Source: an uncultured archaeon (lineage in GTDB: Archaea > Thermoproteota > Bathyarchaeia > Bathyarchaeales > Bathycorpusculaceae). Taken from it: a stretch of DNA of 64,000 bases. How positions within the stretch are numbered: the stretch's first letter is position 1; each line of letters begins with the position of its first letter. Below are positions 13,436 through 57,912 of the stretch, one piece after another. Under the pieces are notes generated by a model, which did not search any database, had not been told where the DNA came from, and saw only the letters and a list, made by a program, of their open reading frames with translations. The stretch covers positions 192,001 through 256,000 of the forward strand of contig CAWENF010000021.1 in NCBI GenBank assembly GCA_963810275.1. Reading direction: 5' to 3'. The translations under genes and the position numbers were made by a program.

Positions 13436-13532
13436 GGGTTTGCTGAGGCTTCTGCCAAGATTTAAGGAGAAAAAGGAAAGAATGAGAGCAACACTTGCAA
13501 ATAGACAATATAACAGAAGCCCTCTCAGCCCC
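13436..13532 (-). ncRNA. Candidate structured sRNA, copy 1 (BHB-like closing stem, anti-leader loop)
   Basis: Minus strand GGGG-CUGA-GAG-GGCUUCUG...UUUCCUUUUUCUCCUUAAAUCUU..CAGAAGCC-UCAG-CAA-ACCC; homologous copies elsewhere in the window. Confidence 0.65.
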
Positions 13533-13593
13533 AACTTAAAAAAATTAAAAAAAACAAAAAAGGGAGGGAAAAAATTTTTCATAGTTTTTCACC

Positions 13594-16016
13594 TTATGGG
13601 TGCTTTCTTAGAACTAACATCATGACGGCTAAGACTACGATGATTGGAACGATGATTGCTGCTGACATTGGTATGAAGTATTGGTCAGCCATGCTTGGAG
13701 GTTGTGTTGGTTGCGGCGAGGGTGTTGCTGATGTGGGGTCAACTGCGAAAGATGTGACTGCGTGAGATTGCCAGTAAGATTTGCTGCCTGCAAATGATGC
13801 GTAGAGAGTATATTTGCCTTCAATGTCAGGTGTCCAGTTGTATGTGAAGAAGCCATCGGCATCTGCTGTTGTAGTGCCTATAGTTCGATAGTTGCCATTT
13901 GAGTCAACAACACTCAATTCCACTTGTACACCTACCACGTTTGTTGGGCGGGGTCTTTGCATAGAACGTATTGATCCATGCGGTCATGCTTTCGTCAGAT
14001 ACTGCGGGGACACCATTGGAAAACGAGCAGCTTGTATTCCTGAGCAAATACAGCAATGTCCAGTACTGTGCCTTCGATCATTACACTGCTTCCTTGTGTT
14101 GTGACTTTGGGTGAGGCATTAACTGTTATAGCGCTATGTCCTTTTCCGAATGCATATATCTGGTTGTCCATAGCATTGTGTGTTACTAGTAATCCATCTG
14201 CAAGGGCGCCCATGGCATTTCTAAGCCTTGATAAGCACCAGAAATATTCCAGATGCCTTCGCCTGTTGTAGCGTTAATAGCCCACATTTTCATACACGAA
14301 TAAGGGTTGGTCTGGCGAGTGTTCATTGTGTGGAATGTAGATTTTGCCATCTGGAATTATTGAGGCGCCATAGAAAGCCCAAGTACCGTAGGTTGTGTCA
14401 AGCTGAACTTGAGCACAGGCTCAATGCTTTCTGACCTGTAGTCATATTGTATCCAGATACAATCTCTGCAGATCCAGCGATGTAGAATATGTGGCCACAA
14501 AACCCCTCCAACATCAAAGATACCCAGTGGTTTTGTGGACCTTGAAGTGGATATATTTAATTTTATGTTTTTATGTGCAGAATTATCCACTGTTGATCTT
14601 CTCTGAAGGGTAGAGCGTATAACTCTGTGTATAGACTAATGTAACGGATATACGTGCGACAGTATCCGTCAATTTTCATTACCAGAAAAAATTCTTACCT
14701 GCTGTATCCTACGTGTACAAAAGTAGGCAATGGGTCTGTTAGTACTGGAAAAGTTCTGGTAGTGATCGTCACACCTTATTTTTCATCTCACCATTCAATA
14801 TGATCCTGCGCCATTTACTATGTTTGCATCCACTTCCCATTAAATACTATCGTGCTATTGATTGTTTGTCCTTGAAAACGTTCGATCTACGTTCATTATT
14901 TTGCTAACTCCAACATTTGAGGTGAAAATGATCTGGGAAGCGCAATAAGTACTCATCTCTAAATATCCTTTGCGTTATTGATAGTGTAAATTCGTATTTC
15001 GCCTTTTCGCACATTTGAACGTCACCGCTTGAGGCGTTCTAGACTGAAGGAATAATTACCTGTGAATCTATCATCTATCTGCTATGTAGTTTGTTGAATC
15101 ATGGATCAGCCAGACTATAAATTTTTACGCGTTATGGGAAAATGCAACCTAATCGTAGGCTGTTGAAACCGCTCCATAGGAGATGTTTTGATACTATAGA
15201 GATCACCTATACATACATCTACTGCTATTGTACCGTATCTTGGTGGTTCTGCGGTTTCGTAGTAGAGAACACCGTTCATAATGATTGGTGGTCTAAACAT
15301 TGGTTAATAGTTCAAGCCGCCATAGTAAGATTCAGCATAGCCGATAATTCCTCTCACTATTCCTCCTGGCAGCAATTGTTTTGTCCACATTATGTGTGAA
15401 GTGTTAGGTCCTGTAGAGTAGGGATTTGCATTACCGCTGCCTTCATAGGCTACTGCGTCTTTATCGCCTTTACCCATGAGCCAGTTTCCTGCAATAGTGT
15501 ACCATTCCCTATTTTCCGAATTTATTGGTCTTGTCCAATATTCAGTTGGAAACGGTAATTCAGGTGTTATGCCAATAGGTTGCTCTTGAACAGTGATTTC
15601 AATTGTTTTTGATTCTAGTGGTACATACCATCTTGAATAGCCATTTGAGCCCGTTCTGTTTACCCATTGTCCTGGAAAGCTAGCGTGTATTTTGTAAGTT
15701 CCTGTACTATCTGGAGTGAACCCAATGTAAGTACCTCCTTTATATCCGATTTCAATCCGCTGAATGTTTGTGTCTTTCCGTCTGGTTTTTCCACAGTAAC
15801 TTCGACGTTATCCCAAGTTTGTCCGGCAATTGGATTTGGTATTGCAAGCCACCATTGAATGTTTAATTGCTGACCAACACCGACAGGATTTGGAACTGCA
15901 CTGATGAATAATCGTGTTTCGACATCAACAGCCGACACTTGTATTACTGACATCATAGAAGGCAAAATTAGAAGCAAAATGCTCACAAAAATTATTGATA
16001 CTTTTTTGTTTTTCAA
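13594..16016 (-). pseudogene. PQQ-like beta-propeller surface protein, paralogue 2 (heavily fragmented)
   Basis: Signal peptide plus PNPVGVGQ, PIIMNGVLYY, NAMDNQIYAFGKG, C-terminal Ig-like domain plus MADQYFIP-TM-RKHP; many frameshifts between about 14000 and 15700. Confidence 0.75.
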
Positions 16017-16064
16017 TTTCTTAAATCTCCGTTTCGGGATTTTAGTTTATCAAGTTTAATGTTT

Positions 16065-16294
16065 TTTGCAAATAAGTCTCACGGACACTGCGTGCATACA
16101 AATAAATGCTCAAAACTATGATTAGTTTAACAAACTGATTTTAATAATAAACATAATGCTTGCTCACTTTTTGTGCATACAAATAATTGTGTAAAAATAT
16201 GGGTCATTAGGACACAAATAGCAAACTATAAACAAGAAAAGAAAACAAGTACTAAAAATTAAGATCTCTATTTTTTCGGTACTGACTTTAATTA
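16065..16294. promoter_or_regulatory. Duplicated divergent promoter region, copy A
   Basis: Colinear with 19071-19304; internal repeat GTGCATACAAATAA at 16092 and 16173. Confidence 0.65.
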
Positions 16295-16349
16295 TGCTAA
16301 AGACGCTTCGGTTGGTCTGGGAATAGAGAATTAAGTTATCAATGTTAAA

Positions 16350-16367
16350 CAGAAACTTCTCAGCCCC
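16350..16367 (-). ncRNA. 5' half only of the structured sRNA element (copy 2, truncated)
   Basis: Minus strand GGGG-CUGA-GAA-GUUUCUG about 42 nt after the paralogue 3 stop; partner strand absent. Confidence 0.5.
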
Positions 16368-16409
16368 AATTTGAAATCCAAAACGAAAAAAAGAAAGTGG
16401 GGGCTTGGT

Positions 16410-19045
16410 TTATGGTTTTTTTCTTAGCATCAAGATCATGACTGCGCCGATGACTGCAACGAGGATGAATAAGGCTGCGATTGCTGGTATGAAATATTGA
16501 TCTGCCATAGATTCTGGTTGCTCAGCTTGAGGAGTTGGTGTTGCTGCTGCTTGATCGACGTTAAATGCTGTAACTGCATGCGATGGATAATATGAGCTAC
16601 TTCCTTCAAAGGATGCGTAAATTATGTATTTGCCTTCAATATCAGGCTGCCATGTGAAACTGTAGAATCCATCTGAGTCAGCTGTGGTTGTTCCAATCGT
16701 TCTATAGTTGCCGTTTGCATCTAATACGCTTAAATTGATGTCAACACCTTGCGCATTTGGTTTTTCTGTTTGTTGATAAACGTACTTCATCCAGTCTGCC
16801 ATACTTTCATCAGACACTGCAGGAACGCCGTCGGGGAATCTTAATTGAATTTCTTTTTGAGTACTACCCGGTGAGACGTCTGTAATTGAACCTCTTATTG
16901 TTATCGTGTTAGCAATTGTTATACCACTTGATGGTACGTCAATGTTTATTGCGCTTGGACCTTTACCTATTGCGTATATTTGCATGTCATATGTGTTCAT
17001 AGCTGCAATGATACTATCTCCAATTAGAGGGTATCCACCCCAGTGAGTCCCGCGAATAAGACCATCTGCTCTCCAAACTACATCACCGGTTGTTGCGTTA
17101 AGACAAATCATTGGTGCGTCGACTGGAAGTGAAAGTTCATATCCGGAGTGTTCTGTGTGTATGACATAAATCAGGCCGTTTGCAATGAACATTGGATAAA
17201 GTGGCCATTCTGCGAACGTTGATCCTAACGCTCTTTCATTGATAGCTGTATAATTCCAAAGCAAATTGCCTGTTAAAGTATCGTAGCAATATAGCACACC
17301 TGAATATCCAGCGGTATAATATTTGCCGTCGTAAATTTGATTAACTGCTCTAGCTGATGTTCCTGCAAGACCCATAGTATAGAAGTCTAAGTAACCGTGT
17401 GAATCCGAAGTCCATAAGTGTGCACCTGTTTCAACACTAAATGCATAATCTTGTCGTGTTTCTTTTTCACCAAAAACTATGATCTCATCTTGTGATAGAT
17501 CACTTGTTGCCTGCCATGCAATTGTTACATTACCATCTTTCCAGTCTGATGGTGAATCCCATACCTTGTTGAAAAATAAAGTTCCTGCACGTTGTTCGTC
17601 AATGCTTATTGCCCATAATGTAACACCATTCGCCGATGCAGTTCCACCAAGAATTCGGTCATCAAGAACTGAAAAGACAGATCCAGGTAGACCCGTTGGA
17701 ATAGTTACGTTCCATTCGTATCCTGCATATCCTGTTGGTGTTAGTTCGTTGTCTGCTGGAGTGACAGATGAAATTCCTGTTGCATCAACAACTTTACCTT
17801 CAGGAACCCATTGTTGTAGGTTTGTTGTACCAATTTCTTGTCCTGCCCATAAGTCAGGAATGTTAGTTGAGTTCCAAAGGGTCATGTAGCCTTTTGCTAA
17901 GGTTAGTTGTATAGACAAGCATTTCACCGTTTTCGCCGATAACTTTGTTTCCTGATGGGACATTGTAGATTGAATAGATGTATTCACCCGTGAATGGATC
18001 AAATGCACATAAAGTTGTACCTGCATTGAATGGAAGTCCTAGTGATGTTTTAGTTTCTGCGGTTGCAGTAGCCCATAAGTAAGGATATGTGCCAACAACG
18101 TTAATTGAGTTCCATTGCATCAATTGTCCTTGAGCTAAAGTCAAATTGTTGAGAAAAGTTTTTGTCCAAAGCACTTCACCTGTATGCAAGTTTACAGCTG
18201 TGTATTCATGAATCTTTGATGTAGTTGGATAGTTGTCGTAGTACAAGTTTCCAAGCATTATGACGCTTCTCAAGAATTTGCCTTGATATGCATCTCCAAT
18301 AGTTACTCTGTCTTCTGTTATTGTACTTGTAGTTCCTTTGCTGCCACCAACTAATCCTCCACCTGTAATTGGTCTACTCCAAAGTAGATGGGGTGATTGT
18401 GGTGCGTAATCGTTTCCATATGCTATTCTGTTATAGGTGTTAGCTGTGTTTGATGCCATTAACCAGTTGCCGCCAATGGTTTGCCATGTTTGGTACTGGT
18501 TGTTTATTGGTCTTGACCAGTATTCATTAGGTAAGGGTTGATAAATAGCACCCTGAATTGGTTCAGATTGTACAACTATACTCCACTTTTTCACTAGAAC
18601 TTGCTTGCATTATTGTTCCTTTTGGGAGAGAAGAACCTATGCTAGCGGGATTAGTTTGTTCTGGGAAGAACGATTGTAAAATATATGTTCCTTCCATGTC
18701 CGGTGTAAAACTTGTTGATGTTCCGCCAGTTGAATCAGTTGCAAATGGACCTAAAGTTGTCTCGTGACCGTCTGGGTCTGTGATGACTACTGTAAGTCCT
18801 GTCCAGCTATATTGGTCAGCAGCTAATTGTTGAGTTATACCTAACCGGATAAGAACTTCTTGTCCTACGCCGATGGGGTTTGGTGTTGCCCCAACGAATG
18901 CATAAGTTTTTAACGTGGGTTCAGCGCTGTCTTCACCGTTTATTGTCGGAATAATAGTTGATACTGATAGTACAGATAGCAACGTTATTGTCAGTATAGC
19001 AAATATTTTATTGGTTTTTGACACTTTCATTTTTTCTTGCTCCAT
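16410..19045 (-). CDS. PQQ-like beta-propeller surface protein, paralogue 3 (two frameshifts)
   Basis: PNPIGVGQEV, PLPNEYWSRPI, HLLWSRPITGGGLVGG, NTYDMQIYAIGKGPS, RFPDGVPAVSDESM, MADQYFIP-TM-RKKP. Confidence 0.85.
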
Positions 19046-19070
19046 AATTTTGTAACATTAGTTTGATGTA

Positions 19071-19304
19071 TTTGCAAATAAGTCTCACGAACATCAAGTG
19101 CGTTCAAATAAATGTAAAGAAGTATGGTCAGTTTGGGAAATGGAGTGGGAAAATAAACAGATAAACCTGCTCACATTGCGTACATACAAATAAATGTGTA
19201 AAAAATCGGTGATTTGGGACACAAATAGCAAATTATAGACAAGAAAAAGAGAGCAAGTATTAAAAAAAATAAGATCGCCATTTATTTGGTATGGACTATA
19301 ATTA
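19071..19304. promoter_or_regulatory. Duplicated divergent promoter region, copy B
   Basis: Colinear with 16065-16294; lies between paralogue 3 and the membrane protein/wHTH pair. Confidence 0.65.
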
Positions 19305-19975
19305 CACGAGGATTATAATTGAAATCCTTTCAGCGATTGCCTGCTTAGTATTAGCAAATTCATGATAAAACCATATCAACTTAAGAAACAAAGCAGGTAT
19401 CTTGGCTTACCATCGGATTTGGTATTCTTGGTTTAAGTTTTGCTCTTACTGTACGCTACTAATCCCGCCGCTTTATCATAATGCTGCATTGTCATGGTTT
19501 GCACACTTCACACGGGTATTTGCATTTATATTCCTCGCAATAACATACTATTTTTCAAAAAATCAGAAAAACGATTACTATGGGACCTAACTCTTAGCCT
19601 CGTGATAGTTGCCTTTATTGCTTCAGCTTTAGCACTCTTATATGCGCCACGAGATATTCTATCAAACTATACAGTTGCTCTGACCTTTGTCCGTATTCTT
19701 AGTTTAGCAGTCCTATCTTACATAATTATCCATACGTTTAGAATACACACAGCAAATCCAAATCTAACACCATATTGGGTCCCCCTGGGCTTTCTATTCT
19801 TCGCATTGAGCCAGTTTTTGTTACTTACATGTACATTACTGAGAGGTTCATTAGATTCAATTGCACAGATACATTAAGCTGGGTAGCTTTGCGTTCGATT
19901 GGCAGGTTTAACATTTTTCTTTTTGTTACCTATCGAACCTTTTACAGTTCTGAGGGAATGGGTCACAATAGATGA
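19291..19975 (+). CDS. Multi-pass membrane protein (putative sensor), frameshifted
   Basis: Manual start MDYNYTRIIIEILSAIACLVLANFMIKPY; hydrophobic ORF fragments; stop overlaps the wHTH start (ATGA). Confidence 0.65.
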
Positions 19976-20244
19976 ATAAGATTCATCGAAGTAGGATGGA
20001 AATATACGGCGAACTGTTAGCTGTGCTAAAAGAAGAAACTAACAACGAAAAGTTAGTGGTGACTCGGATTCAGGGTCGAATTAATGTGCCTTTTGATCGA
20101 TTTAAAAAATACATTTCAGAGCTTTACAGTTTAGGCTTGATTGAGGACCAGACTACTCTTAAACTTACAGACAAAGGAAAAGAATACCTAAAGGGATACG
20201 AGCAAATTGTGATTTTCATGGAGCGCATGGGTCTCACAAAATAG
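19972..20244 (+). CDS. Archaeal winged-helix transcriptional regulator (HTH_45-like)
   Basis: HRSRMEIYGELL...TRIQGRINVPFDRFKKYI...LTDKGKEYL. Confidence 0.85.
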   Translation: MNKIHRSRMEIYGELLAVLKEETNNEKLVVTRIQGRINVPFDRFKKYISELYSLGLIEDQTTLKLTDKGKEYLKGYEQIVIFMERMGLTK

Positions 20245-20408
20245 AATAACACTTTGAGACTATGCAGTGCTAGACTATGTCCCTTTTTATGAAGGGGGGA
20301 GAAAAAAACGATAAATTCTTCTCCAGAGGTGCGTATCCCAGCGGATTCGCCATTTTAGTTGTAAAAAATCTGATTTGCAGTACCTTTAGTCAACAAAAGA
20401 AGATTTTA

Positions 20409-20507
20409 AGGTTTGCTGAGGCTTCTGCTTAAGGAGATTTAAGGAGAAAAATTAATTAAAACAACAGCAAACAACATCATACACATACAAAAACCCTCAT
20501 CAACCCC
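20409..20507 (-). ncRNA. Candidate structured sRNA, copy 3
   Basis: Minus strand GGGG-UUGA-UGAG-GGUUUUUG...UUUUUCUCCUUAAAUCU..CAGAAGCC-UCAG-CAA-ACCU; pairs via G-U only on the minus strand. Confidence 0.6.
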
Positions 20508-20587
20508 AATTTTAAAGCCAAAAAAACTAAAAGAGAGTTATGCTCCGTGATGCTATTTTGTTTGTATAAAATAAATCGTAGAAAAGA

Positions 20588-20689: not shown

Positions 20690-20750
20690 ATGTTGTTTCT
20701 CCGTATCTTTATGTGATACAATACATATCAATCAATAGACAAATATAAAT

Positions 20751-35182: not shown

Positions 35183-36096
35183 CTACTTCCGTTTCCTGAA
35201 AAGCTTGACTCCATCCATTTCGGTGACAAACTCAAAGCCCTGTTCTATTAACTTACAAGCTTCATCTACAGTTTTAGCTACAGATACATGATATTCATCA
35301 TTACCAAAATGTACCAAGTGAGTGTATACCATTGTGTTTTGGATATTCTTGTGACCTAACTGTTGCATGACAAACAATAGGTCTTTTGTGCTATGGTACA
35401 ACATGGTGGCAAAGTAATGTCTTAGGTCGTAGAGTCTTATTTTTAGAAATTCGGGGTTTCCAGTAGCAACAAAGGCTCTCTTTCTCTCTACATGCCAGTG
35501 ATGGGTTAATGTATCCTGTGAAGCAAAAATTGTCTTATCTAAGTCTGCCCTATCAGCACCTATCACTCTGATAAGCTTTGATAACGTGTCTGGCTTGATT
35601 TTGAACGTTCTTGGGTTGCCATATTTGGCAGTCTTAACATACATCAAACCTTGTTCCAAATCAATGTCTCTAAGTGTCAGCTTACCTAATTCAACAGGTC
35701 GTAAACCATACTCTTTGATAATGGTAAAAGCAACTTTTCGTTTGAGTGAATGACAATGCTCAATGATGTAATTCACATTTTGTTCAAGAGGTGCTTTTTT
35801 GTGGTTACCAGTCTTCTTATACTTTGGTCTATCCCAAGTAATCTTATAGAACTTAGCAAAGTGGTCATAGCAAGCAATTAAGTTCCTTTTGTAGTCGGGG
35901 CTTTTGTTAAGATTAGCTATGTAAGCTCTCACTGATTCAGGGTTATTTAAGTCACAGTTAGCTGACAGGACTCGATACCATTTACCAAAGTTTTTCAGAG
36001 TTGATTCAGCAAAACCATCATTCTTCAATTTGACTAAAACATTCAGGTAGGTGGTCGGAAGAGATTTGTGGTAGCCCAGAAGAGATTCGAACTCTT
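35183..36096 (-). CDS. Tyrosine integrase, C-terminal fragment int(C)
   Basis: GLRPVE, TAKYG, RLYDLRHYFAT, LGHKNIQNTMVY catalytic residues; frame stays open upstream of TTG 36028 through the att core. Confidence 0.92.
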
Positions 36097-36144
36097 GTCA
36101 AGGGCTCCAGAGGCCCCTATGCTTGACCACTACACCACTGGGCT
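36069..36144 (-). tRNA. tRNA-Gln(CUG)
   Basis: AGCCCAG/CTGGGCT acceptor stem plus ACCA; anticodon arm GGGGC-CTCTGGA-GCCCT; T arm AAGAG-TTCGAAT-CTCTT. Confidence 0.95.
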
Positions 36145-37431: not shown

Positions 37432-40072
37432 TTATGGTTTGCGTAGGACGATGATTGTCAACAGACCAACTACTATGATGGCGACTAAGAGGCCAACGAT
37501 AGCTGGGACAAAGTACATGTCAGCCATTGATTCTGTTGGTGCGTTTGTTGGTGCGGGGGTTGCTGCTGATGGGTCAACTGCAAAGGCTGCGGTTGAGACA
37601 GATGGCCAGTAACCGTTAGTGCCTGCGAAGACTGCGGTGACTTTGTACATGCCGGTGATGTCTGGTGTCCATTGTAGGTTGTAGTGGCCGGTTTCGTCAG
37701 TTGTTGCAGAGCCGATTGTGCGGGTGTTTCCGTTGGCGTCTGTGACCATGATTTGCACTTCAACACCAGTGAAGTTTGTTGGGAGTGGCTTTTGTTGGTA
37801 GACATAGCCCATCCAGTCCTTCATGCTGGCATCAGATGCAACTGGTACACCGTTTGCAAACCGGGCTGATTGCTCGTTTTGCTGTGAGCCTGAGGAAATA
37901 TCCATGACGGTTCCGCTGATGACTATTGATTGTCCTTCATGTGAGTGCTGCTTGCGGAGTGTTGACTGTTATTGTGCTTGGACCTCTGCCGACGACATAG
38001 ATTTCGTTAGTCAAGCCGTTAAACCAGGTATTATAACCGTCTGCGATTGCGTAGCTTTGGACCATGAACTCGCCGACATAGCTATTGAGAGTCCATACTT
38101 CTTCGCCGGAGGTTGCGTTGAGTGCGCGGGATAGTGCACCTTTGTAGAGTGGAGTTTCGATTGTGTGTTCTGTTGTGACAGTGTAGATCAAGCCATTTGC
38201 GTAGCCGTTGACGAATGTTGGGTAGTTTCCTGGAACTACAACGCCGCCGTCAGTGCTGTTTCCTGGGCCGCCATTGCCATAAGTCCATAGTAAGTCACGC
38301 AGAGACTGTATCATAGCAGTATACGATGCCTGCGTATCCGCTGCTGTACATGTTACCATAGGCAAACATGTTGCTTAAGCTGGCTGATGCTGGGCTGCCG
38401 TAGTAGTCCATTGCGGTCTTGTGGATAGTGCTAGTTGTAGTCCAAAGCGGCGCCAGTGTTAGGCTGTAACCTATAAAGCAGTTCATTTCACGAACGTTTT
38501 CTACGAATACTCTGTTGACTGGATCAACACCTGCTTCGATTATGGTTGCCCCGGGTCTAAGTTGTCTGGGTTAACTGTGTTTATCCATTGTATTTGTCCG
38601 TATGTTCCAGCGGTCTTGTTAAGACTGACTGCAAAGTACGTGTATGGCTCTTGCGATGGTGTTGCACCGAAGAAGAAGCTGGTGCCTGTTGATGGTAATG
38701 TACCGTTGTAGCATAGCATGACATCGTCGTAATATGCTTCAACTACTGTGAATCTTGATGTCCAGTTTTTGCCTTGGTATGTGATTGGCACTGTCCAGTC
38801 GTATCTGTCGGATGTGCTTGCATCAAGTGCACGAATGTTGAGACCGATTGAGCGGTGTGTCTGTCCATGTCCAGAGGTTGCTAGAGTTCCATTGGCGTAC
38901 TACATAGCCTTGAGGCGTACTTTGTGATACGTAGAATAGGTATTCACCCATTGGTCCCATCGCTGCTCTACCAGATGGACGCCACCGAAGAATCCGCCAG
39001 CTACTTGGGAACGCCAGTTGCGTTGAAGAGGCTTGTGCCTGTATCTGCATCATAGAATTGCCAGTTCGGACCCAGAGCCAAAGAAGCATTGCAGTTGGTA
39101 GACACCGTGCTGGTTGGGGTTTTCGGAATCAAAGACATAGCGTGCGAAAGTGCTGGAATATTATTGCTTCTCCAGTACTCTTCGCCTGTACGTAGGTCAA
39201 CACAGGGACAGGCTTGTTTCGCCTCCAGTGGGTTTAAGGTATGAGACTGGTTCGGTGTAGTATAGTTTGCCGTCAACAATGATTGGGTTCGTGTATCTTT
39301 GTAGATAAGCACTTCCTTCGAAGTATGTGTTACCTGGGTAGTCTTCGAAGTCATTTCCACCTACAACACCGCCTGCCTGAAGTGCTTTAGTCCACATGAT
39401 GTGGCTAGTTTCTGAACCAGCTGCGTTGTCTGGGAATAGTGCGCCGTTACCACCGAAGTTATATGAGCTTTCAAAGCCGAGATAACCTGGGGCACCGTTG
39501 CCTAGCCAGTTAGATGAGATCAAGTACCAGATGCTGTTCTCGCCATAAATTGGGCGGCTCCAGTACTCGGTTGGCAGTGGATATGTGTCGGGTAAGCGAC
39601 CGATTGATTCTTCTTGGACGGTGAAGGTTGTTGTTGCATTGCTACCTAGGAAAACGTCATTGTTATTTTGGTTGGAGCGTGCTGTTTGGTTAATCCACAT
39701 TTCTGGGAATTCGAAGTCAACGGTGTATGTACCAGCCATGTCCGGGGTATAGAGATATGCTTGGTTAGAGGTTGTGTCGAAAACTGTTGACCACTCCTCT
39801 TGAACGGTGTGGTTGTCAGGTTTTGTGATAGTCAATTTGTAGTCGTGTACTCTAAAATCATTATCCAAGTCTGCGCCAGGTGCAGTTCGGTCAATCCACA
39901 TGTAGATGGTGATTTCGTCACCAACGCCAACGTGATTGGGAAGAGCTGCAACGTATGCGAAAGTCTTGTATTCTGTTGCTGCGCTAGCTGTAGGCGTAAG
40001 TACTGATATGCCCATTGAAACGACTAAGAGTGTTGCTAACAAAATAGTCGCGGTTTTACTTTTGGTATTCAA
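37432..40072 (-). CDS. PQQ-like beta-propeller surface protein, paralogue 4 (many frameshifts)
   Basis: Signal peptide, PLPTEYWSRPIYGEN, HIMWTK..GGVVGG, TTEHT, GRGPS, RFANGVPVASDASM, MADMYFVP-TM-RKP. Confidence 0.8.
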
Positions 40073-50656: not shown

Positions 50657-50860
50657 GGTTAGGCTAGTCCCCCGGCTTTTGATGAATATACATCTCTAAT
50701 ACACCCTTATACTTCTACATATTATGTTACATATATGTACATAATATGTTGGTTCCACCATATATAAATGAAGAATCACTAATGAACTAGCTATCTGTCA
50801 ATAATCAACTAGCAAGGAACACGTTTTTATGTCAAGACAAGCAACTACCCACGAACACAA

Positions 50861-52189
50861 ATGCGGCAAATACACATCAAAACCTACGGATGCTCTAGCA
50901 ACACCGCAGACACCCAAACACTCGCAGGAACCCTAAAACAAGCAGGCTATACGATAACCGACAAAGAAGCAGACGCAGATCTTATAATATACAATACCTG
51001 CGCAGTAAAAGGACCCACAGAGAATCGCATTATAGATGACATAAAACACACCCCCAAGGGCAAAAAAGTCATAGTTGCAGGCTGCCTGCCCAAAATCAGC
51101 TTCCAACGTCTCCAAAGGGAAGTTCGCTTCGATGCAGTAGTCGGCCCTGCAGCAGGCGAAAAAATCGTTCAAATCGCAAAGCAAGTTATCAATGGAGCCC
51201 AAAACATCGTGGATTTAGAGGTTCTCGAAAGTTTACCGCCAATTACCCTGCCTAAAATACGCAAAAACCCGGCAGTCTCAGTAATCCCCATAAACATGGG
51301 GTGCTTGGGAAGCTGCGCTTACTGCTGTGTAGTACTAGCCCGCGGGAAATTACGCAGTTATAGCATCGAGGATATTGTGAAAAGGGTTCAGGTGGACTAT
51401 TCGGAGGGGGCAAAGGAGTTCTGGTTGACCTCGCAGGACACTGCAAGCTACGGTAGAGACAGAAAAACTGACTTAGCGTCCTTGCTATGCGCCGTAGGCA
51501 GCGTGGAGGGTGACTTTCGCGTACGAGTGGGCATGATGACGCTTAACCTTGTCAAAGATATGGAGGAGCGATTGGTCGGGGCGTTTGAAAACCAGAAAAT
51601 ATTCAAATTCCTGCATTTGCCCGTGCAAAGCGGCGACAATGGCGTCTTAAAAGGCATGCGCAGATTCTATACTGCGGAGGAGTTTAAAGCGACTGTTAAG
51701 GCGTTCCGAGAAGCGTTCCCTGACTTGACTTTAGCCACGGACATCATCGTTGGCTATCCAGGAGAATCTGAGAAAGCCTTCAACAACACATTAAACCTAC
51801 TAAAAGAGGTCGAGCCTGATGTGACCAATGTATCCAAGTTTTTCGCTCGCCCCAAAACAGCCGCACTAGACATAACTGATGGCTTAGTCGATAAAGAGGA
51901 AACTAAACGCCGAAGCACAGTCACAGCAGAATTAGCCAAACAGATTTCCGCTAAGCGAAACAAAATCTGGGAAGGCTGGGTCGGCAATGTACTATTCGAT
52001 GAGACAGGTAAATTGTTGAATTCGTGGGTTGGGCGCAACTTTGCTTACAAACCCATCGCAGTCAAATGCAGCGACAACTTATTAGGCAAAACCCTAAAGG
52101 TGAAAGTCACAGAAGCAGCAGGAACATATCTAAAAGGAAAAATTATAGAGCCTGAAGGCGACGGCGAACTGGGTTACTTGGCTATTTAA
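50861..52189 (+). CDS. tRNA methylthiotransferase (archaeal MtaB / MiaB-like)
   Basis: TYGCSSN, NTCAVK, AGC, GCLGSCAYC, LHLPVQSG, TDIIVGYPGE, C-terminal TRAM domain. Confidence 0.92.
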   Translation: MRQIHIKTYGCSSNTADTQTLAGTLKQAGYTITDKEADADLIIYNTCAVKGPTENRIIDDIKHTPKGKKVIVAGCLPKISFQRLQREVRFDAVVGPAAGEKIVQIAKQVINGAQNIVDLEVLESLPPITLPKIRKNPAVSVIPINMGCLGSCAYCCVVLARGKLRSYSIEDIVKRVQVDYSEGAKEFWLTSQDTASYGRDRKTDLASLLCAVGSVEGDFRVRVGMMTLNLVKDMEERLVGAFENQKIFKFLHLPVQSGDNGVLKGMRRFYTAEEFKATVKAFREAFPDLTLATDIIVGYPGESEKAFNNTLNLLKEVEPDVTNVSKFFARPKTAALDITDGLVDKEETKRRSTVTAELAKQISAKRNKIWEGWVGNVLFDETGKLLNSWVGRNFAYKPIAVKCSDNLLGKTLKVKVTEAAGTYLKGKIIEPEGDGELGYLAI

Positions 52190-52641
52190 TGGTACAGCTA
52201 TGATAGCGCATGGTTGAGTGCGAGGCGCCACTGCTGCCCAAACGCCCATACTATGCTCCAGTAACATCCCTTGTCCACCACTGTGCTTGAGTTTATAAGG
52301 TTAAAACTTGTATGTACCATATCCTGACGGCGCATTTACAATTTGGTGGCCCAGGTCTAAGAGTTCAGCGAAGTCTTTGTATGAAGGGTCTGTGAACATG
52401 TAACGCCACTGCTGAGCGAAGTCAGAGTCGCAAATCATCAAGCCATCAAGTTGCATTCCGATTGACTCGTAGGGTCTATCATCAAAAGCGGTTTTTGCGA
52501 AGACACCGATTAGGGTTTGCGGGTTGAATATAACGCTGACAGTGCCGACGAGTTGTTTTTGGTTGCCAAGTAGATGTTGGCAGCTAAAGAAGCTACTAAA
52601 ACAGCGGGTAGTATTATTGTTATTATTTTGGTTTTGCCCAT
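52186..52641 (-). CDS. Small secreted/membrane hypothetical protein, frameshifted
   Basis: Manual start MGKTKIITIILPAVLVASLAANIYL; continues in another frame. Confidence 0.4.
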
Positions 52642-53012
52642 GTTTGTTTCTTCCACTAAAGACACGAGTTAACGATAGATCATTATAAGATTTTCTTGAT
52701 ACCAGGAACTTGGCGGATTTAGGACATTTGTTACCGGAATTTCTGTTTGTGTAAACTTTTCTATAAGGTTTAGATGAAGAGAACGGACGCTTTAATCTTC
52801 ATTTTCTCAGAGTTGGTTGGCGGTTATATTTTCTTTCTGGGTTATTTGGTTGGTGGGCGGTTGAGGTTGAAGTAGTTTTTACACACAAGAAAAATGGCAT
52901 TAGGCTTACAATTTTTTATAGATGGATTAGTTGTGAAATTCAGTTAGCCCATTTTGATTGTGGAAGGCTTAAATAATTTCACTCGCTCTCAAACCTTATC
53001 TGAGCTGAGATT

Positions 53013-54434
53013 GTGACCTCCAATCAACCCATCGTGCTTTTCAACACCCTGACACGGAAAAAGGAGCCATTTCATCCAATCGTAGAGGGTACAGTCAAAC
53101 TCTATACCTGCGGACCAACCGTGTATGACTATGCGCACATTGGCAACTTCCGCGCTTTCATCTTTGAAGATTTGTTTAAACGCTGGCTCATATACCGTGG
53201 CTACAAGGTCACTCACATCATGAACTTAACCGACATAGACGACAAAACCATTAGAGGCAGCCAAAAACAAGGCATCCCGTTACGAAAATTTACAGAATTT
53301 TATGTCAAAGCGTTCTTTGAAGACATAAAGGCGCTAAACATCTTGCCTGCAGATGTGTACCCTAAAGCCACTGACCACATCCCGGAAATGATAGAATTAA
53401 TCAAGACCTTGATGGCTAAAGGCGTCGCGTACAGCGGCGAGGACGGCTCCATATATTTCTCAGTAGCTAAGTTCCCAGATTACGGCAAACTCAGTCATCT
53501 AAAAGTTTGCGAACTCAAAGCAGGAGCACGGGTCTGCCAAGACGAATACGCCAAAGAAGAAGCACAAGACTTCGCACTTTGGAAGGCTTGGACTCCCGAG
53601 GACGGCGAGGTGTTTTGGGAGACAGAACTGGGAAAAGGTAGACCGGGCTGGCACATCGAATGCTCCGCCATGAGCACCAAGTACCTAGGTGAAACCTTTG
53701 ACATCCACTGCGGCGGCGTAGACAACATGTTTCCTCATCATGAAAACGAAATCGCCCAATCCGAAGCAGCCAGCGGCAAGCAGTTTGTCAACTACTGGAT
53801 GCATAACGAACACTTGCAAGTCGAAGGCAAAAAAATGAGCAAACGTTTCGGCAACTTTTACACGCTCCGCGACTTGCTAACTAAGGGCTATGACCCAATC
53901 GCTATCCGTTACCTACTGATGAGTACGCATTATCGGCAGCAATTCAACTTCACCTTTGAAGGTTTAGAATCAGCGAAAGCAGCATTGGAACGATTGCGGA
54001 ACTTTGTGCGACGATTACATGAGGTTGAAGGCACAACAGCCACAGGAAAAGTCGAAGTTTTAACCGACAAACTGGAGGCGTGCTTCGGCGGCAGCATGGA
54101 CAACGACCTAAATGTCGCAGTAGCCTTAGCCTCGCTCTTCGATTTCGTCAGAGAAATGAATGCACTACTAGATGCCAACTTGGTCAGCAAACAAGAAGCA
54201 GCCGACGTAGGCGGCTTAATGATGCGCCTGGACACCGTTTTAGGCGTGATTGGTAAAGTCGAAGTAGAAGAAGCCCTGCCTGAAGACATCGATGCTTTGG
54301 TGCAAAAACGGGAAACTGCACGCAAAGCCAAAAACTGGAAAGAAGCCGACGAAATCCGTACACAACTCAAAGCAATGGGCATTGTACTTGAAGACACCGC
54401 ACAGGGCATAAGGTGGCATAAAGAGACTGCTTAA
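53013..54434 (+). CDS. cysS: Cysteine--tRNA ligase
   Basis: [41 protein letters not shown]. Confidence 0.97.
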
Positions 54435-55216
54435 GCAATTTTCCCATTTAGGTTCCAGTCTTCCTTTAAATATTTTTCGTTACACAATTTTTGTGCTATG
54501 GCTTTCTCTTTTTGTGTGAGTTCGCTTTCGAGTAGTTGGATTTTTAGGATTGCTTTGAAGCCTTGTGCAAGGGCGTTGGCGACTGTTTGGGGGCTGATTT
54601 TGTGTCCGAGTTCGGTTTGGATGCTGGTTATTTTGCGTTGCCCTATTGCTGTGGCTTCGATGCAGGAGACGCCCTTGAGTTGGAGCAACTGGAACATGCG
54701 GGGCAAATCCAGGTTGATAAGAACTGTGCCATGCTGCAACACGATACCTCGGCTGATGGTTTGGCTGCTGCCGCTGATTTTTTTGCCCACCACAGTTAGG
54801 TTTGGGCAGTTCTTGGCATCGCCAGTGCTGAAGTCTGCGGGAACTCCGAGGAGGCGCAAGGCGTCGGTTATGGCGCCGTAGATTTTCGTGTAAATGGTGG
54901 TTACATCCGCCGAGCCTAAATCGGAGACTTTAGCAACGACACTGTAGGTGACTTCACCCTCAAAATCATGGTAGACTGCTCCGCCACCGCTGATACGCCG
55001 AACAACATCCACCCCAAACTTTTTGGAATTATCGAGATAGACGTCGTTTTGTGGGTTCTGATTCCTTCCTAGGCTCACAGCGGAGGGTTTCCAGCGATAA
55101 AACCGCAGTGTATTTGGTACTTCCCCGTTGATGCGGGCTTGGAGTATGGCTTCGTCGATTGCCATATTCATGGCTGCACTGCTAGTTGATAAAGGGAGAT
55201 AACGCCAGATGTTCAT
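54431..55216 (-). CDS. Lipoate-protein ligase A family
   Basis: NMAIDEA, LRFYRW, VVRRISGGGAVYHD, KKISGSSQ, LQHGT. Confidence 0.9.
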   Translation of the reverse strand: MNIWRYLPLSTSSAAMNMAIDEAILQARINGEVPNTLRFYRWKPSAVSLGRNQNPQNDVYLDNSKKFGVDVVRRISGGGAVYHDFEGEVTYSVVAKVSDLGSADVTTIYTKIYGAITDALRLLGVPADFSTGDAKNCPNLTVVGKKISGSSQTISRGIVLQHGTVLINLDLPRMFQLLQLKGVSCIEATAIGQRKITSIQTELGHKISPQTVANALAQGFKAILKIQLLESELTQKEKAIAQKLCNEKYLKEDWNLNGKIA

Positions 55217-55736
55217 AAACTGTCACTTTTCGTCTTCTTGTTGTTTTTATGTTGCCTCTCGGCTTCGCGGCGGATGGCGTCTATGTTTCCGTCAACCATT
55301 GATAGCCACTGCTTGTTCTGCTCAGTATTTAGGCCGTGTTTAACAAAGATTTCTTTTGCTCGCAAAAGCGCCTCTACCGCTGCGTCAAGACAGCGTAGAG
55401 TAGCAAGTGAGGTTCCTTGATTCGCCAGGGCCATGAGCCATCTGCCTACGTCGGCGGGATACTGGTCGCCACATTGGTCATAAAACGCTAAAGCTTTGTT
55501 TGCGGCGGCAAAGCACTCCATATGCTGGCCCAGTTTACCATGAGCAGCGGACAAGCCCGAGTAGCAGTAAGCAGCAAAACGTCTGCGATCAAATGACAGT
55601 CGGAGGGAAGCGTGACGCATATTCGCAGCGCCTTGTTGAAGCACTCCACAGCGTCGGTATAGTTGCCTTCCACGATGAGGCGCTCTGCATTTCGGCTGGC
55701 TTGCTGCATGTCGCGGATTACGTGAGCAGTCTTCAT
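55213..55736 (-). CDS. TPR-like protein (DUF3856-like), frameshifted near 55600
   Basis: Joined frames ...EGNYTDAVECFNKALRI../FDRRRFAAYCYSGLSAAHGKLG...ANKALAFY. Confidence 0.6.
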
Positions 55737-55846
55737 TTTTTACCCTGCATGTTTAGGTATACATCCATTTAATCAAGGTTTTTTAACCTTGAGAGATAAT
55801 CCTTAAAACCTAAACCTGCATTCCTTAGCAAACAAGAGGAATAATA

Positions 55847-56728
55847 GTGAAAATTATTAGCGGTCCAGCGTCCAAAGCACTTGCCGAGGCAGTATCTGCC
55901 CAAACAGACATCAAAAACGTCCCAGTTATCAGCAAAATCTTCCCCGACGGCGAATCCTACGTCAGAATCGACGGAGACGTCGCAGGCGAAGAAGTCGCCA
56001 TCATCCAAACCACCTGCCCCCCAATGCAGGACGGCAAACTATTCCAACTGGCTTTCCTTGCAGATTCAGCAAAGCGCGCATGCGCCACCAAAGTAATCGC
56101 AGTCGTACCTTACCTCGCCTATGCAAGGCAGGACAAAATGTTCCTCTCAGGGGAAGGCATAAGCATCGAAACCATCTCGCGCATGCTCAAAGCCGCCGGT
56201 GTAGATCAACTCTTGACAGTAAACATCCACTCCGAACACTCACTTGCTCAGTTTCCGTTCCCAGCCAAAACAGCCAGCGCTATCCCCCTAATCGCAGACT
56301 ATTTCGTCCAAAAAGGCCACAAAGGAGCCTATGCACTTTCCCCCGACAAAGGCGCAATGTACATCGCCCAACAGGCACAACAGGTTTTGGGCGGCGACGC
56401 AGGGCACCTCAACAAAACCCGCGACCGCTACACGGGGCAAACAGTGCAGACCGCCGAGGGCCTAAACGTCAAAGACCAAACCGTCATCATCCTTGACGAC
56501 ATCATCAGCACAGGCGGCACCATCGTCGGAGCAGCCAAAATCCTAAAAGAAAACGGTGCGACACACGTGTTCTGCGGCTGCGTACACGGCCTACTCATAG
56601 GCGACGCCGAGAAACGCATTCTCGACGCGGGTGTGGAGGAAATCGTGGGCACCGACAGTGTCCCCGGAGCAGTTAGCAAGGTGTCGCTGGCTCCACTTAT
56701 CAGTAAAGAACTAAAAGGCGCAAATTAG
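55847..56728 (+). CDS. prs: Ribose-phosphate pyrophosphokinase
   Basis: FPDGESYVR, PYLAYARQD, SPDKGA, ILDDIISTGGT. Confidence 0.96.
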   Translation: MKIISGPASKALAEAVSAQTDIKNVPVISKIFPDGESYVRIDGDVAGEEVAIIQTTCPPMQDGKLFQLAFLADSAKRACATKVIAVVPYLAYARQDKMFLSGEGISIETISRMLKAAGVDQLLTVNIHSEHSLAQFPFPAKTASAIPLIADYFVQKGHKGAYALSPDKGAMYIAQQAQQVLGGDAGHLNKTRDRYTGQTVQTAEGLNVKDQTVIILDDIISTGGTIVGAAKILKENGATHVFCGCVHGLLIGDAEKRILDAGVEEIVGTDSVPGAVSKVSLAPLISKELKGAN

Positions 56729-57807
56729 TGCCTAAACTCTTCTTTTTACTATCAGGCGAGAACAAAACTCTGCCCAGCGCCGAAGTCAAAGCGATTCTTG
56801 AGGCAGAAAGCTACAGGTATTCTAATCCAAGCGAGTTTGATCAAATTCTACGCCTCGAAGCAGAGGATGCAGAGTGTGTAAAGGCTGTGCAGTTGCGCTC
56901 CGCTTACACGCGGGTCTGTGCACAAGAACTGTTTGTGGCAAACGCAACCTACGATGAAATTCTGGAAGCCGCCTCCAAATTAGACTTTTCGTCTGTGCTA
57001 AAAGAGGGCGAGTCCTTCGTAGTGCGCATAGACCGCATCAAAAACAACGCAGACGCAGAAATCAACACCATGACACTCGAAGTCAAGCTGGGCGGACAAA
57101 TCCTGCGGCAAACTCCCGGCGCCAAAGTAAACCTGAAAAACCCAGACAGAACTTTTCTTGGCGTGATCACAGACAATAAGCTCATTTTGGGCTTGAAACT
57201 GACCGAAATTACTTCAAAAACTTTCAGTGAACGCCGTCCACGCAAGAAACCCTTCTTTCACCCCTCGGCGATGCCGTCGAAGATGGCTCGTTGCATGGTG
57301 AACTTGGCGCATGCCAACGCTGAGTCAATTCTGCTGGACCCCTTCTGCGGCACAGGCACAAGCCTAATCGAAGCCACGTTTATTGGTTGCAGGGCGGTAG
57401 GTGTGGATGCGCAGCTGCGGATGGTTTTGGGCACAAAGAAGAATTTGGAGTTTTTCGGCATCAAAGCTGAAGGCTTAATCCATGGTGATTCACGGAAAAT
57501 TCCAATCATCAAAGTGGACACAATCGTCACCGACCCCCCATACGGGCGGAGCAGCAGTACCCTCAAATCCACAACCAAGCAGCTGGTTAAAGAGGTTTTA
57601 GCGGCTTCTTCAGCGCTTTTACGTGTAGGTCGTCGGATTTGCATCGCTATGCCAATTAGTCCCGACAGTGCAGGCAACGTGGCACGGATGGCTGAGGAAA
57701 TATCGGTTTTTGTCGAAGGGTTAGGTTTTGAGTGCCTCCAGAACCACAGAGTCTACATACATACCACGTTGACTAGAGAAATTGTGGTTTACAAAAAAAC
57801 TCGATAG
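56728..57807 (+). CDS. THUMP-domain tRNA (guanine-N2) methyltransferase (Trm11/Trm-G10 type)
   Basis: RRPRKKPFFHP, MARCMVNLA, LDPFCGTG, TDPPYGRS, HTTLTREI. Confidence 0.9.
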   Translation: MPKLFFLLSGENKTLPSAEVKAILEAESYRYSNPSEFDQILRLEAEDAECVKAVQLRSAYTRVCAQELFVANATYDEILEAASKLDFSSVLKEGESFVVRIDRIKNNADAEINTMTLEVKLGGQILRQTPGAKVNLKNPDRTFLGVITDNKLILGLKLTEITSKTFSERRPRKKPFFHPSAMPSKMARCMVNLAHANAESILLDPFCGTGTSLIEATFIGCRAVGVDAQLRMVLGTKKNLEFFGIKAEGLIHGDSRKIPIIKVDTIVTDPPYGRSSSTLKSTTKQLVKEVLAASSALLRVGRRICIAMPISPDSAGNVARMAEEISVFVEGLGFECLQNHRVYIHTTLTREIVVYKKTR

Positions 57808-57820
57808 CTTGGCGATTTCT

Positions 57821-57912
57821 GGGTTTGCCGAGGTCTCTAAAGATTTAAGGAGAAAAAGGGTCGTAACCATATAGTTAGGCAACGGTAATTACCCTGAGAC
57901 CTTTTCAGCCCC
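57821..57912 (-). ncRNA. Candidate structured sRNA, copy 4
   Basis: Minus strand GGGG-CUGA-AAA-GGUCUC...CCUUUUUCUCCUUAAAUCUUUA-GAGACC-UCGG-CAA-ACCC; inner helix covaries with copy 1. Confidence 0.65.

Follow-up and report, generated by a model that had tools for sequence, protein, structure and literature searches.

The archaeal bulge-helix-bulge (hBHBh'), the substrate of the splicing endonuclease EndA, is known in tRNA introns, rRNA processing stems, the cbf5 intron and the 5' UTR of HVO_1309. The hairpin elements analysed here resemble it: each strand has one 3-nt bulge, located 3' of a short central helix, and further helices flank this arrangement at both ends. They differ in a central helix predicted at 5 rather than 4 bp, an outer helix of mostly 3 bp and near-invariant helix sequences. 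They also stand past a terminator-like T tract following protein genes, and a genome can have as many as 18 of them. With the icaR mRNA of Staphylococcus aureus and sRNA41 of Methanosarcina mazei they share a loop-presented pyrimidine-rich stretch, complementary to a ribosome-binding region and encoded either past a gene or within a small RNA. The complementarity predicted for the element, however, also spans the start codon and lies beyond an oligo-T tract, and the element is repeated behind many paralogous genes without preferring its own. REPIN/REP sequences with RAYT, MITEs, ERIC and Correia elements are likewise ∼100 nt in length. Their long imperfect hairpins combine a variable loop with conserved arms; the repeats sit outside genes, often behind them, and are multi-copy, patchy in relatives and subject to concerted evolution within a genome. 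The literature searched describes no such repeat from Bathyarchaeia. Unlike these repeats, the element occurs in genomes that mostly lack a Y1 transposase, shows neither target-site duplication nor parent element, has a conserved loop motif, and bears compensatory changes at single syntenic copies. Integron attC sites, which like REPINs are recognised as single-stranded DNA hairpins, are imperfect hairpins of ∼60-140 nt with unpaired bases; they stand at the 3' end of each gene in a tandem array of cassettes and border inserted cassettes, and their structure is kept more than their loop sequence, as in the element. The element does not match what we take to be the attC R-box consensus; its bulges are on opposite strands rather than one, and its cassettes all belong to one gene family, each gene having its own start signals.

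The window analysed is a 64,000-nt stretch of contig CAWENF010000021.1 (GCA_963810275.1), whose archaeal host belongs to Bathyarchaeia according to the record titles. Full copies of the element occur at exactly the positions given in the initial annotation, together with a 5'-arm remnant, all on the minus strand. The features of the window referred to below are as follows.

13436..13532, minus strand: full copy 1, 97 nt, model score 101.1 bits; layout from sequence and fold, GGGG-CUGA-GAG-inner helix, loop, inner helix-UCAG-CAA-ACCC
13461..13484, plus strand: loop core of copy 1 on the opposite strand, TTTAAGGAG, A-rich spacer, ATG
13556..13561, minus strand: oligo-T tract, T6 as read on the minus strand, separating copy 1 from the stop codon at 13594-13596
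13594..13962, minus strand: propeller-family C-terminal fragment upstream of copy 1, 122 aa, Ig-like domain and membrane anchor
16350..16367, minus strand: remnant, 5' arm alone (GGGGCUGAGAAGUUUCUG), recognised by sequence, no model match
16410..18026, minus strand: PQQ_2 propeller/Ig-like gene piece upstream of the remnant, 538 aa
20409..20507, minus strand: full copy 2, 99 nt, model score 77.1 bits
20438..20451, plus strand: loop core of copy 2, plus strand reads TTTAAGGAGAAAAA
40070..40105, minus strand: leader and TTG start of ORF 39197-40072, a propeller-family N-terminal fragment
57808..60873, minus strand: insert of 3,066 nt holding propeller gene, terminator and copy 3
57821..57912, minus strand: full copy 3, 92 nt, model score 78.9 bits, inner helix GGUCUC/GAGACC
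57844..57857, plus strand: loop core of copy 3, plus strand reads TTTAAGGAGAAAAA
57970..60547, minus strand: propeller-family gene upstream of copy 3, two overlapping frames (57970-59520 and 59366-60547)

A covariance model was built from 12 copies and run on Bathyarchaeia genomes, where it found more copies beyond the window. The proposed family of non-coding, structured ∼95-base hairpin elements is thus real and larger than first reported, and it is previously undescribed. The three full window copies gave E-values of 2.6e-24 to 7.5e-18. The genome itself holds 17 matches with E < 0.02, 12 of them with E ≤ 7e-13, an occurrence far beyond chance. The model search detected the element in 19 of 24 other species of the genus, at 1 to 18 copies per genome; the remaining 5 species encode 6-35 propeller genes and have no detectable element. 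Among 150 other genomes sampled across the class, it was confined to two Bathyarchaeia families and one marginal match. Context and motif counts below refer to 119 copies, and the covariation alignment to 110 copies from other species.

Each copy forms a hairpin of 88-120 nt with a nearly invariant base, a covarying helix above it and a 45-60 nt loop on top. The base consists, in order, of a GGG/CCC pairing, an AAA bulge on the 3' strand, a GCUGA/UCAGC pairing, an RWR bulge on the 5' strand and a GGCU/AGCC pairing; AAA is the 3' bulge in 110/110 copies. The arms, bulges and compensatory inner-helix variants of the window copies match the earlier description. Copy 2 has a degenerate 5' arm (UUGA, GGUUUUUG). 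The central helix, originally given as 4 bp, is instead predicted as the 5-bp GCUGA/UCAGC; its extra pair, G4-C, is GC in 97, GU in 3 and AU in 1 among 104 copies, and A8 faces C in 19/103. Most copies have an outer helix of just 3 bp; it extends into the flanks in one relative (G040, 11/13 copies), whereas elsewhere in the genus it mostly does not. The covariation claimed for the closing stem was strong in alignments of both 41 and 110 copies: helix cells pair in 91.9% of cases against 85.4% when shuffled in the former, and in 90.8% against 85.9% in the latter. Two-sided changes were seen at 13 of the 17 pairs (110 copies), and 0/500 shuffles reached the observed values. Manual comparison of an orphan copy in the genome (C15:11472) with the syntenic copy in the relative G014 revealed three compensatory double changes and two G-U pairs, and at three syntenic loci the arms are identical on both sides and the loop is indel-rich.

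The loop carries, on its complement strand, a Shine-Dalgarno box, a spacer and an ATG, a motif overlooked in the initial annotation. The sole conserved loop motif is UUUUCUCCUUAAA (conservation ∼90%), mostly preceded by UUGCAU; read in antisense, the two give precisely the Shine-Dalgarno box, A-rich spacer and AUG-CAA that propeller surface-protein genes have at their 5' ends. On the element strand the loop core of copy 1 is accordingly an anti-Shine-Dalgarno/anti-start stretch. The strict motif (GGAG-N4-13-ATG) is present on the complement strand of 64/119 copies (shuffles average 3.1 and never exceed 10), and a loose form in 96/119; the strict motif is found on the element strand in 0/119 copies, that is, the interior is never flipped. 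Motif spacing is 6-12 nt in loops, which we count as matching the 8-12 nt of real family genes. Predicted duplexes between the loop and family initiation regions average -18.2 kcal/mol, compared with -11.6 for shuffled loops and -9.4 for the other strand. The covariance model also matches, through its loop part only, the genuine start region of a propeller gene. About 25 nt of the leader of ORF 39197-40072 are identical to the element-loop complement, and nowhere in the genome is the predicted pairing with the loop stronger than at this leader (-28.4 kcal/mol, rank 1 of 1083).

PQQ_2 propeller and/or Ig-like domains are encoded by the genes at 13594, 16410 and 57970, whose stop-to-element distances are 61, 42 and 57 nt, as the range reported earlier implies. 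Copy 2 has no propeller gene in front of it; 1.1 kb upstream is the end of the nearest co-oriented gene, for an Ig/PKD protein of 289 aa. Across the family, 83/119 copies come 37-211 nt after a co-oriented ORF that is complete and exceeds 500 aa, and a run of at least 5 T precedes 105/119 (last T at median -28, interquartile range -31 to -24). Such an oligo-T tract is the usual archaeal terminator, and the same tract stands behind family genes that have no element. Its location between gene and element means that the '3'-UTR-derived' RNA proposed earlier needs either read-through or a promoter of its own. The T6 tract at 13556..13561, with more T runs between it and copy 1 (13533-13554), is the presumed terminator of the upstream gene and possibly a TATA-like box serving copy 1. 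No fixed T run follows the element: at least 5 T occur within 60 nt in 53/119 copies, compared with at least 5 A in 40/119. The element also marks the edge of inserted propeller-gene cassettes, a position missed earlier. The insert at 57808..60873 separates a THUMP methyltransferase gene from a tRNase Z gene, and these two genes abut in the relatives G014 and G005; the convergent THUMP gene stops 13 nt from copy 3, and in G049 the corresponding distance is 9 nt. At the locus of the orphan copy, at least 15 species have a spacer of ∼90 nt; it measures 409 nt in the present genome and 3.9 kb, with a gene and element, in G014.

Since the loop mirrors a ribosome-binding site and start codon, the element may control translation. 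Building on the established structure, covariation, position, antisense complementarity and taxonomic range, we tentatively favour, with a probability of roughly 0.37, a lineage-specific structured RNA of the gene strand whose loop masks translation start sites and which may be freed by the splicing endonuclease. Covariation, the antisense start motif, the position behind genes, EndA and RtcB together with the bulge polarity, and known precedents point to this reading, in which transcription, the working strand, pairing in vivo, any effect on translation and any cleavage are inferred. The hairpin would be transcribed by read-through of the oligo-T tract behind the propeller gene or, alternatively, from a start for which the T-rich tract serves as TATA box. 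The stem would hold out the loop, which could pair where translation starts on Shine-Dalgarno-led mRNAs (propeller-family leaders are among the best matches) and so block ribosome binding. The invariant bulged base may act as a protein handle, its likeliest partner being the two-subunit splicing endonuclease; cleavage at the bulges by this enzyme could release the loop RNA. Precedents are the masking of a ribosome-binding site by archaeal sRNA41, described in part of PMC5867862, and the 3'-UTR/5'-UTR pairing of icaR, described in part of PMC3868564. Several results count against the gene-strand RNA. Predicted pairing favours neither the gene upstream of the same element (permutation p = 0.97, n = 71) nor the one next downstream (p = 0.63, n = 15), copy number varies from 1 to 18, and the five species with 6-35 propeller genes show no element. 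The oligo-T tract ahead of the element, the lack of a fixed T run after it, the wobble count that picks neither strand and the 5-bp central helix weigh on the same side. In the present genome, family starts (-15.3 kcal/mol, n = 20) are not better targets than other strong Shine-Dalgarno genes (-14.2, n = 257; p = 0.24). ATG-CAA is kept in 44/64 loops, whereas 15/71 family genes start so, which makes inheritance look likelier than target tracking.

A serious rival, possible but in our judgement doubtful, is that the element acts as DNA, either as the end or recombination site of propeller cassettes or as a self-spreading small non-autonomous repeat. The stem would then be kept for recognition of the single-stranded hairpin by some enzyme, and the loop motif would be a leftover or portable ribosome-binding site. 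Sharp copy boundaries, copy-number variation and the cassette-edge position fit a mobile DNA repeat equally well. Six copies in the genome are 85-93% identical behind genes with 33-50% protein identity, and their similarity ends exactly at GGGG and ACCC; tandem arrays exist with one element behind each gene, and one degenerate copy adjoins broken integrase fragments. The patchy range within the genus, the THUMP-tRNase Z insertion and the variable spacer at the orphan locus point the same way. Against this, no target-site duplication was seen at five copies, the sole candidate being the low-complexity ACAAAAAA at one locus; no longer parent element with the same arms was found in the genome; and Y1 transposase is absent from it and from 13 of 20 element-bearing relatives. 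None of the pattern's 19 viral-contig matches passes the model. The departures from attC in bulge arrangement and, presumably, box consensus are further points against DNA, as is the conserved loop motif, for which a recombination site has no need. That single syntenic copies show compensatory changes, and that the element is conserved in two families, argues for selection on each copy, again against the DNA reading. A second rival takes up the first proposal for these elements: EndA would cut both bulges and RtcB would join the product into a stable ∼80 nt circular RNA, the loop content being secondary. This seems unlikely to us. Two EndA paralogs (∼186 aa) and RtcB are indeed encoded in the genome, the bulges are laid out as in its own tRNA introns with helices on either side, and AAA is also the 3' bulge of its tRNA-Gly intron. 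Where A8 is opposite C, just 4 bp remain between the bulges, and with no conserved terminator past the element its 3' end may come from processing. Parts of PMC7714728 and PMC4090602 indicate that two-subunit EndA accepts relaxed motifs, which we count for this proposal, and part of PMC7714728 provides a non-tRNA, non-rRNA precedent in HVO_1309. On the other side, the predicted, covariation-supported inter-bulge helix has 5 bp, compared with 4 bp in the three canonical-position tRNA introns inspected, and the short outer helix is a further drawback. In three relatives the 16S processing stems do not resemble the arms. Helices so nearly fixed in sequence suggest that the sequence itself is recognised, something EndA does not require.

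The working strand could also be the opposite one, the element then being a stem-enclosed portable translation start (Shine-Dalgarno box and ATG) or a promoter-proximal module that reads into the 3' end of the propeller gene, giving an antisense transcript or a short sequence-independent ORF. The retained start motif, with natural spacing and its frequent CAA second codon, and an identical 25-nt leader in a genuine gene (ORF 39197-40072) speak for this, as do A-C cells at positions 1, 2 and 8 that would become G-U pairs. We nevertheless consider it quite improbable: ORFs from the opposite-strand ATG span 1 to 90 aa (median 13.5) and have no peptide in common, and the unconserved upstream sequence indicates no shared promoter. 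The initial annotation had fixed the minus strand by G-U pairs against C-A mismatches; this argument fails, with 50 G-U and 61 A-C cells in 105 distinct copies from other species, and wobbles without strand bias would also suit DNA. The count favours the minus strand (43 versus 23) only when three positions are dropped, a post-hoc choice. Inner-helix G-U pairs, counted by hand, favour the gene strand by 35 to 19. Comparison by eye with part of PMC4090602 and with the genome's own tRNA introns supports the claim that bulge-helix-bulge polarity exists on the minus strand alone, that of the opposite strand being wrong for any known processing motif.

The three full copies and the half copy reported in the initial annotation were confirmed on the sequence at window positions 13436-13532 (copy 1), 20409-20507 (copy 2), 57821-57912 (copy 3) and 16350-16367 (the remnant), all on the minus strand. 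Read 5' to 3' on that strand, the full copies consist of GGGG, CUGA, a 3-nt bulge, the 5' strand of an inner helix, a loop of approximately 55 nt, the 3' strand of the inner helix, UCAG, CAA and ACCC. Copy 2 carries UUGA for CUGA, a UGA or UGAG bulge and ACCU for ACCC; copy 3 carries UCGG for UCAG. The window copies scored 77-101 bits with a covariance model built from 12 copies of the same assembly (hereafter the own genome). As described before, copy 1, copy 3 and the remnant lie 61, 57 and 42 nt, respectively, behind genes for PQQ-type beta-propeller/Ig-like surface proteins that end in a membrane anchor (the propeller family); copy 2 does not follow a propeller gene. About 75 nt upstream of copy 2, the minus-strand segment 20580-20640 resembles the 3' half of a tRNA (T arm and acceptor strand), and a tRNA was called there by neither ARAGORN nor Rfam (E <= 10).

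The initial observation could be extended beyond the window. The own genome (2.26 Mb in 28 contigs) contains 17 model matches with E < 0.02, of which 12 are strong. Among 40 relatives scanned, matches were found in 19 of the 24 species of the same genus, with 1-18 per genome, and in 1 of the 16 genomes that belong to the order but to other families. In five species of the genus no element was detected, although 6-35 family genes are present. An even sample of the class gave matches in 11 of 150 other genomes, namely 7/15 from the own family (five genera) and 3/5 from one other family, plus a single marginal hit elsewhere. In Rfam, which the initial annotation had proposed to scan together with Bathyarchaeia genomes, nothing reached the gathering score over the whole window, and at E <= 10 the regions around copies 1 and 2 gave only chance-level hits with E of at least 0.5. 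No description of the element was found in the literature searched. The family is new to Rfam and to that literature. When the arm-gap-arm pattern was compared with public contigs, the matches listed bore the titles Candidatus Bathyarchaeota or Bathyarchaeia, plus scattered bacterial records that we took as chance, about 100 being expected for the pattern by our estimate. The pattern also matched viral contigs 19 times, but none of these matches proved significant with the model and they were taken as chance.

The consensus fold comprises a 3-bp outer helix (GGG/CCC), a 3-nt bulge in the 3' strand, a 5-bp helix, a 3-nt bulge in the 5' strand and a covarying inner helix of 8-9 bp. Across 110 copies (105 distinct) taken from other species, 90.8% of helix cells pair compared with 85.9% after shuffling, and changes on both sides occur in 13 of 17 pairs. 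The observed pairing values were reached by 0 of 500 shuffles, and sliding the partners by one column halved the pairing. The compensatory changes of the inner helix first seen among the window copies thus hold in the larger alignment; its distal part switches between C-G and U-A, between U-A and C-G, and between G-C and A-U or U-A. Hardly any variation is seen in the stem base and in the context of either bulge: the 3' bulge is AAA in 110/110 copies, and the 5' bulge is RWR with three columns filled in 108/110 (GAA 55, GUA 16, AAA 11, GAG 9, GUG 9, AAG 5 and three singletons). The stem is the minimum-energy fold in 49 of 59 copies even with 40-nt flanks added. In G040, a genome of the second element-bearing family (loci L085, L101 and L102, for example), the closing stem is extended by 4-9 bp into both flanks in 11 of 13 copies, giving an outer helix much longer than in the window's genus. 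A K-turn or C/D box was rejected by eye against the consensus, the tandem G-A pairs being absent on either strand.

A complete ORF exceeding 500 aa, in the same orientation, precedes 83 of 119 copies. A conserved C-rich/T6-8 tract separates its stop codon from the element, with the last T at a median position of -28. Since the same tract is kept behind family genes without an element, it is the gene's own signal, presumably its terminator; its spacing to the element would equally be compatible with a TATA box. Downstream of the element, the 119 copies share no fixed T run. Open frames on the gene strand cross the element, with a frame that changes between copies as judged by eye, and coding on this strand was rejected.

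The sole conserved motif of the loop is UUUUCUCCUUAAA, often preceded by UUGCAU. On the opposite strand it reads as a Shine-Dalgarno box followed by an A-rich spacer and ATG-CAA. With the strict pattern GGAG-N4-13-ATG, 64/119 copies matched on the opposite strand and 0/119 on the element strand; shuffled loops gave 3.1 on average and at most 10. The spacing from Shine-Dalgarno box to ATG in the loop complement agrees with that of real propeller genes, and the covariance model yields the true start region of a propeller gene as a loop-only match. Since the ORFs that begin at this ATG encode 1-90 aa and have nothing in common, the ATG does not mark a gene, and a protein on the opposite strand was rejected. 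An invertible promoter segment was likewise dismissed: the interior was never flipped relative to the distinguishable arms (0/119, strict pattern).

On the element strand, the loop motif is unpaired in the consensus fold and would be exposed as a stretch complementary to a ribosome-binding site. The predicted duplex between the loop and family start regions averages -18.2 kcal/mol, compared with -11.6 for shuffled loops and -9.4 for the other strand. The pairing is not specific, however. Neither the element's own gene (p = 0.97) nor the next downstream gene (p = 0.63) is preferred, and in the own genome family start regions are no better targets than other genes with strong Shine-Dalgarno boxes (p = 0.24). 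The exception is the minus-strand ORF at window 39197-40072: some 25 nt of its leader are identical to the loop complement. The codon after the ATG is CAA in 44/64 elements and in only 15/71 family genes, a mismatch that counts against a specific regulator. Pairing of the loop with the 5' flank was also considered (-8.4 compared with -7.2 kcal/mol for shuffled flanks) and dropped, as the own-copy signal was absent (p = 0.13).

The initial annotation had taken the variants, which give G-U pairs on the minus strand and C-A mismatches on the plus strand, to fix the strand. This argument fails as stated, since the large alignment contains 50 G-U and 61 A-C helix cells; leaving out positions 1, 2 and 8 gives 43 and 23, a post hoc choice. 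Bulge polarity does agree with the minus strand. In canonical tRNA introns the first two anticodon bases lie within the central helix (PMC4090602), so that each bulge is 3' of that helix. In the consensus fold this polarity, that of a tRNA intron at 37/38, occurs on the minus strand only, and by eye it is the same in the introns of tRNA-Ser(cga), tRNA-Leu(caa) and tRNA-Gly(ccc) of the own genome. The proposed bulge-helix-bulge likeness also stands for the number and size of the bulges (two, 3 nt each, on opposite strands) and for the helices that flank them on both sides. It does not extend to the central helix, for which 5 bp are predicted (GCUGA/UCAGC) and the strict definition, like the three native introns, has 4. 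The extra pair, G4-C, is GC in 97, GU in 3, AU in 1 and A-C in 3 of 104 copies. For a length of 4 bp, either a G-A apposition must be accepted or the A8-U pair must be open; A8 faces C in 19/103 copies, which would leave 4 bp there.

The own genome encodes two paralogs of the splicing endonuclease EndA (C20:23437 and C20:35495, ~186 aa) and the ligase RtcB. We take the paralogs as the two-subunit form, for which tolerance of relaxed motifs is reported (PMC7714728). Given the fitting polarity and the encoded enzymes but a 5-bp central helix, processing of the element by EndA is possible, outside the strict bulge-helix-bulge definition. A tRNA-Met of the own genome (C3:134595-134701) has a complete anticodon arm followed by a 26-nt insert, which, as an intron at a non-canonical position, fits an endonuclease of relaxed specificity. 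A likeness of the arms to rRNA processing stems was rejected, the 16S flanks of three relatives being unlike them.

At the DNA level, six copies of the own genome are 85-93% identical while the proteins encoded ahead of them are only 33-50% identical, and the similarity among these copies stops exactly at the stem base. Copy 3 belongs to a 3,066-nt insert, with a minus-strand propeller gene, the T tract and the element, which splits two genes:
Window 56728-57807, plus strand: THUMP-domain methyltransferase gene
Window 60874-61794, plus strand: tRNase Z gene
The two abut, stop codon to start codon, in two relatives (G014 and G005). Copy 3 lies 13 nt from the THUMP stop codon, and an element occurs there in only 1 of 29 THUMP loci of relatives. 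The low-complexity sequence ACAAAAAA is present at both insert junctions (THUMP and tRNase Z) and could be a target duplication. A second THUMP/element/propeller stretch in the own genome (C23:4543-7964) matches window 57100-60547, with 89% identity over the THUMP query segment, and could reflect duplication or the co-assembly of a strain variant. Another locus, on contig C15, differs in spacer length: at least 15 species have ~90 nt, the own genome has 409 nt including an orphan element, and one relative has 3.9 kb that include a gene and an element. The two syntenic elements of this locus are three compensatory double changes apart. Across genomes, 10 orthologous pairs had both flanks alignable, too few for rates, and one triple was aligned.

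We favour, at a little over one chance in three, an RNA of the gene strand whose loop would mask translation starts and whose bulged stem base would serve as a handle for a protein or for processing. The nearest competitor, only moderately less probable, is a mobile or recombination hairpin acting as DNA, kept there by the patchy occurrence, the position at cassette edges and the concerted evolution of the copies. Known systems of this kind differ from the element. The initial annotation had named a MITE with target-site duplications as a match that would speak against an RNA; no flanking direct repeats were seen by eye at five near-identical copies, and no arm pairs at long spacing, as expected of a parent insertion sequence, were found in the own genome. 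Unlike in a REPIN/RAYT system, most element-bearing genomes lack a Y1 transposase: PF01797 is absent from the own genome (0 matches) and from 13 of 20 element-bearing relatives, and it occurs in two relatives without elements. Integron attC sites have R''/R' boxes (RYYYAAC ... GTTRRRY) and unpaired bases on one strand; by eye the element consensus fits these boxes in neither orientation, and its bulges lie on opposite strands. Excision by the endonuclease as the whole function, for which bulge polarity speaks and the 5-bp helix does not, is quite unlikely. A function of the opposite strand, which bears the start-like motif without a shared peptide, is improbable. Similarly doubtful is the fuller proposal that EndA-excised, RtcB-closed stable circular RNAs would mask with their loops the ribosome-binding site and start codon of propeller mRNAs, the expressed paralogue holding the others down in trans.

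The family has a clean structure, a covarying hairpin with an invariant bulged base and a loop mirroring a translation start. The surface proteins with which it is linked are membrane-anchored and form a large family that changes fast. Bathyarchaeia, uncultured archaea that abound in soils, peat and sediments, have to our knowledge an almost unexplored RNA biology. An RNA regulator would add a repeated, gene-linked mode of ribosome-binding-site masking in archaea. Cleavage by the endonuclease would widen its known substrate range beyond tRNA, rRNA and two mRNAs. Circular masking RNAs, if real, would form a post-transcriptional circuit by which an uncultured archaeal lineage selects its surface-protein variants, and the first multi-copy, protein-gene-associated class of endonuclease substrates. 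A recombination hairpin of a gene cassette would point to an archaeal cassette-shuffling system without a known enzyme.

Several further features were observed around these loci. Genes for wHTH (HTH_45) proteins were rejected as partners of the element, being present at only 6 of the 119 fetched loci, all from relatives; in the own genome they lie upstream of propeller genes and not beside the element as such. They occur there in eight places (window 12941-13366, minus, and 19972-20244, plus; contigs C2, C3, C14, C17, C19 and C21), by coordinates within ~1.5 kb of a propeller-family start or an element copy, which suggests regulator/surface-protein pairs. Several propeller genes of the window are broken into overlapping frames or are N- or C-terminal fragments (57970-60547, 16410-19045, 13594-13962 and 39197-40072), full-length relatives having ~800-900 aa. 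Either pseudogenes or errors of the assembly could explain this. Flanking the orphan element locus, a ~160-nt block (C15:11050-11210; L015/L310), conserved in most of the genus, terminates in a GGCAUUA...UAAUGCC hairpin and may be an unannotated RNA gene. At C17:107247-107941 of the own genome, two pieces of a broken integrase gene border a degenerate element in which loop and 3' arm are preserved. Within window 35183-36144, on the minus strand, a gene for a tyrosine recombinase (Phage_integrase) directly adjoins tRNA-Gln (36069-36144), an arrangement that is the usual signature of an integrated element.
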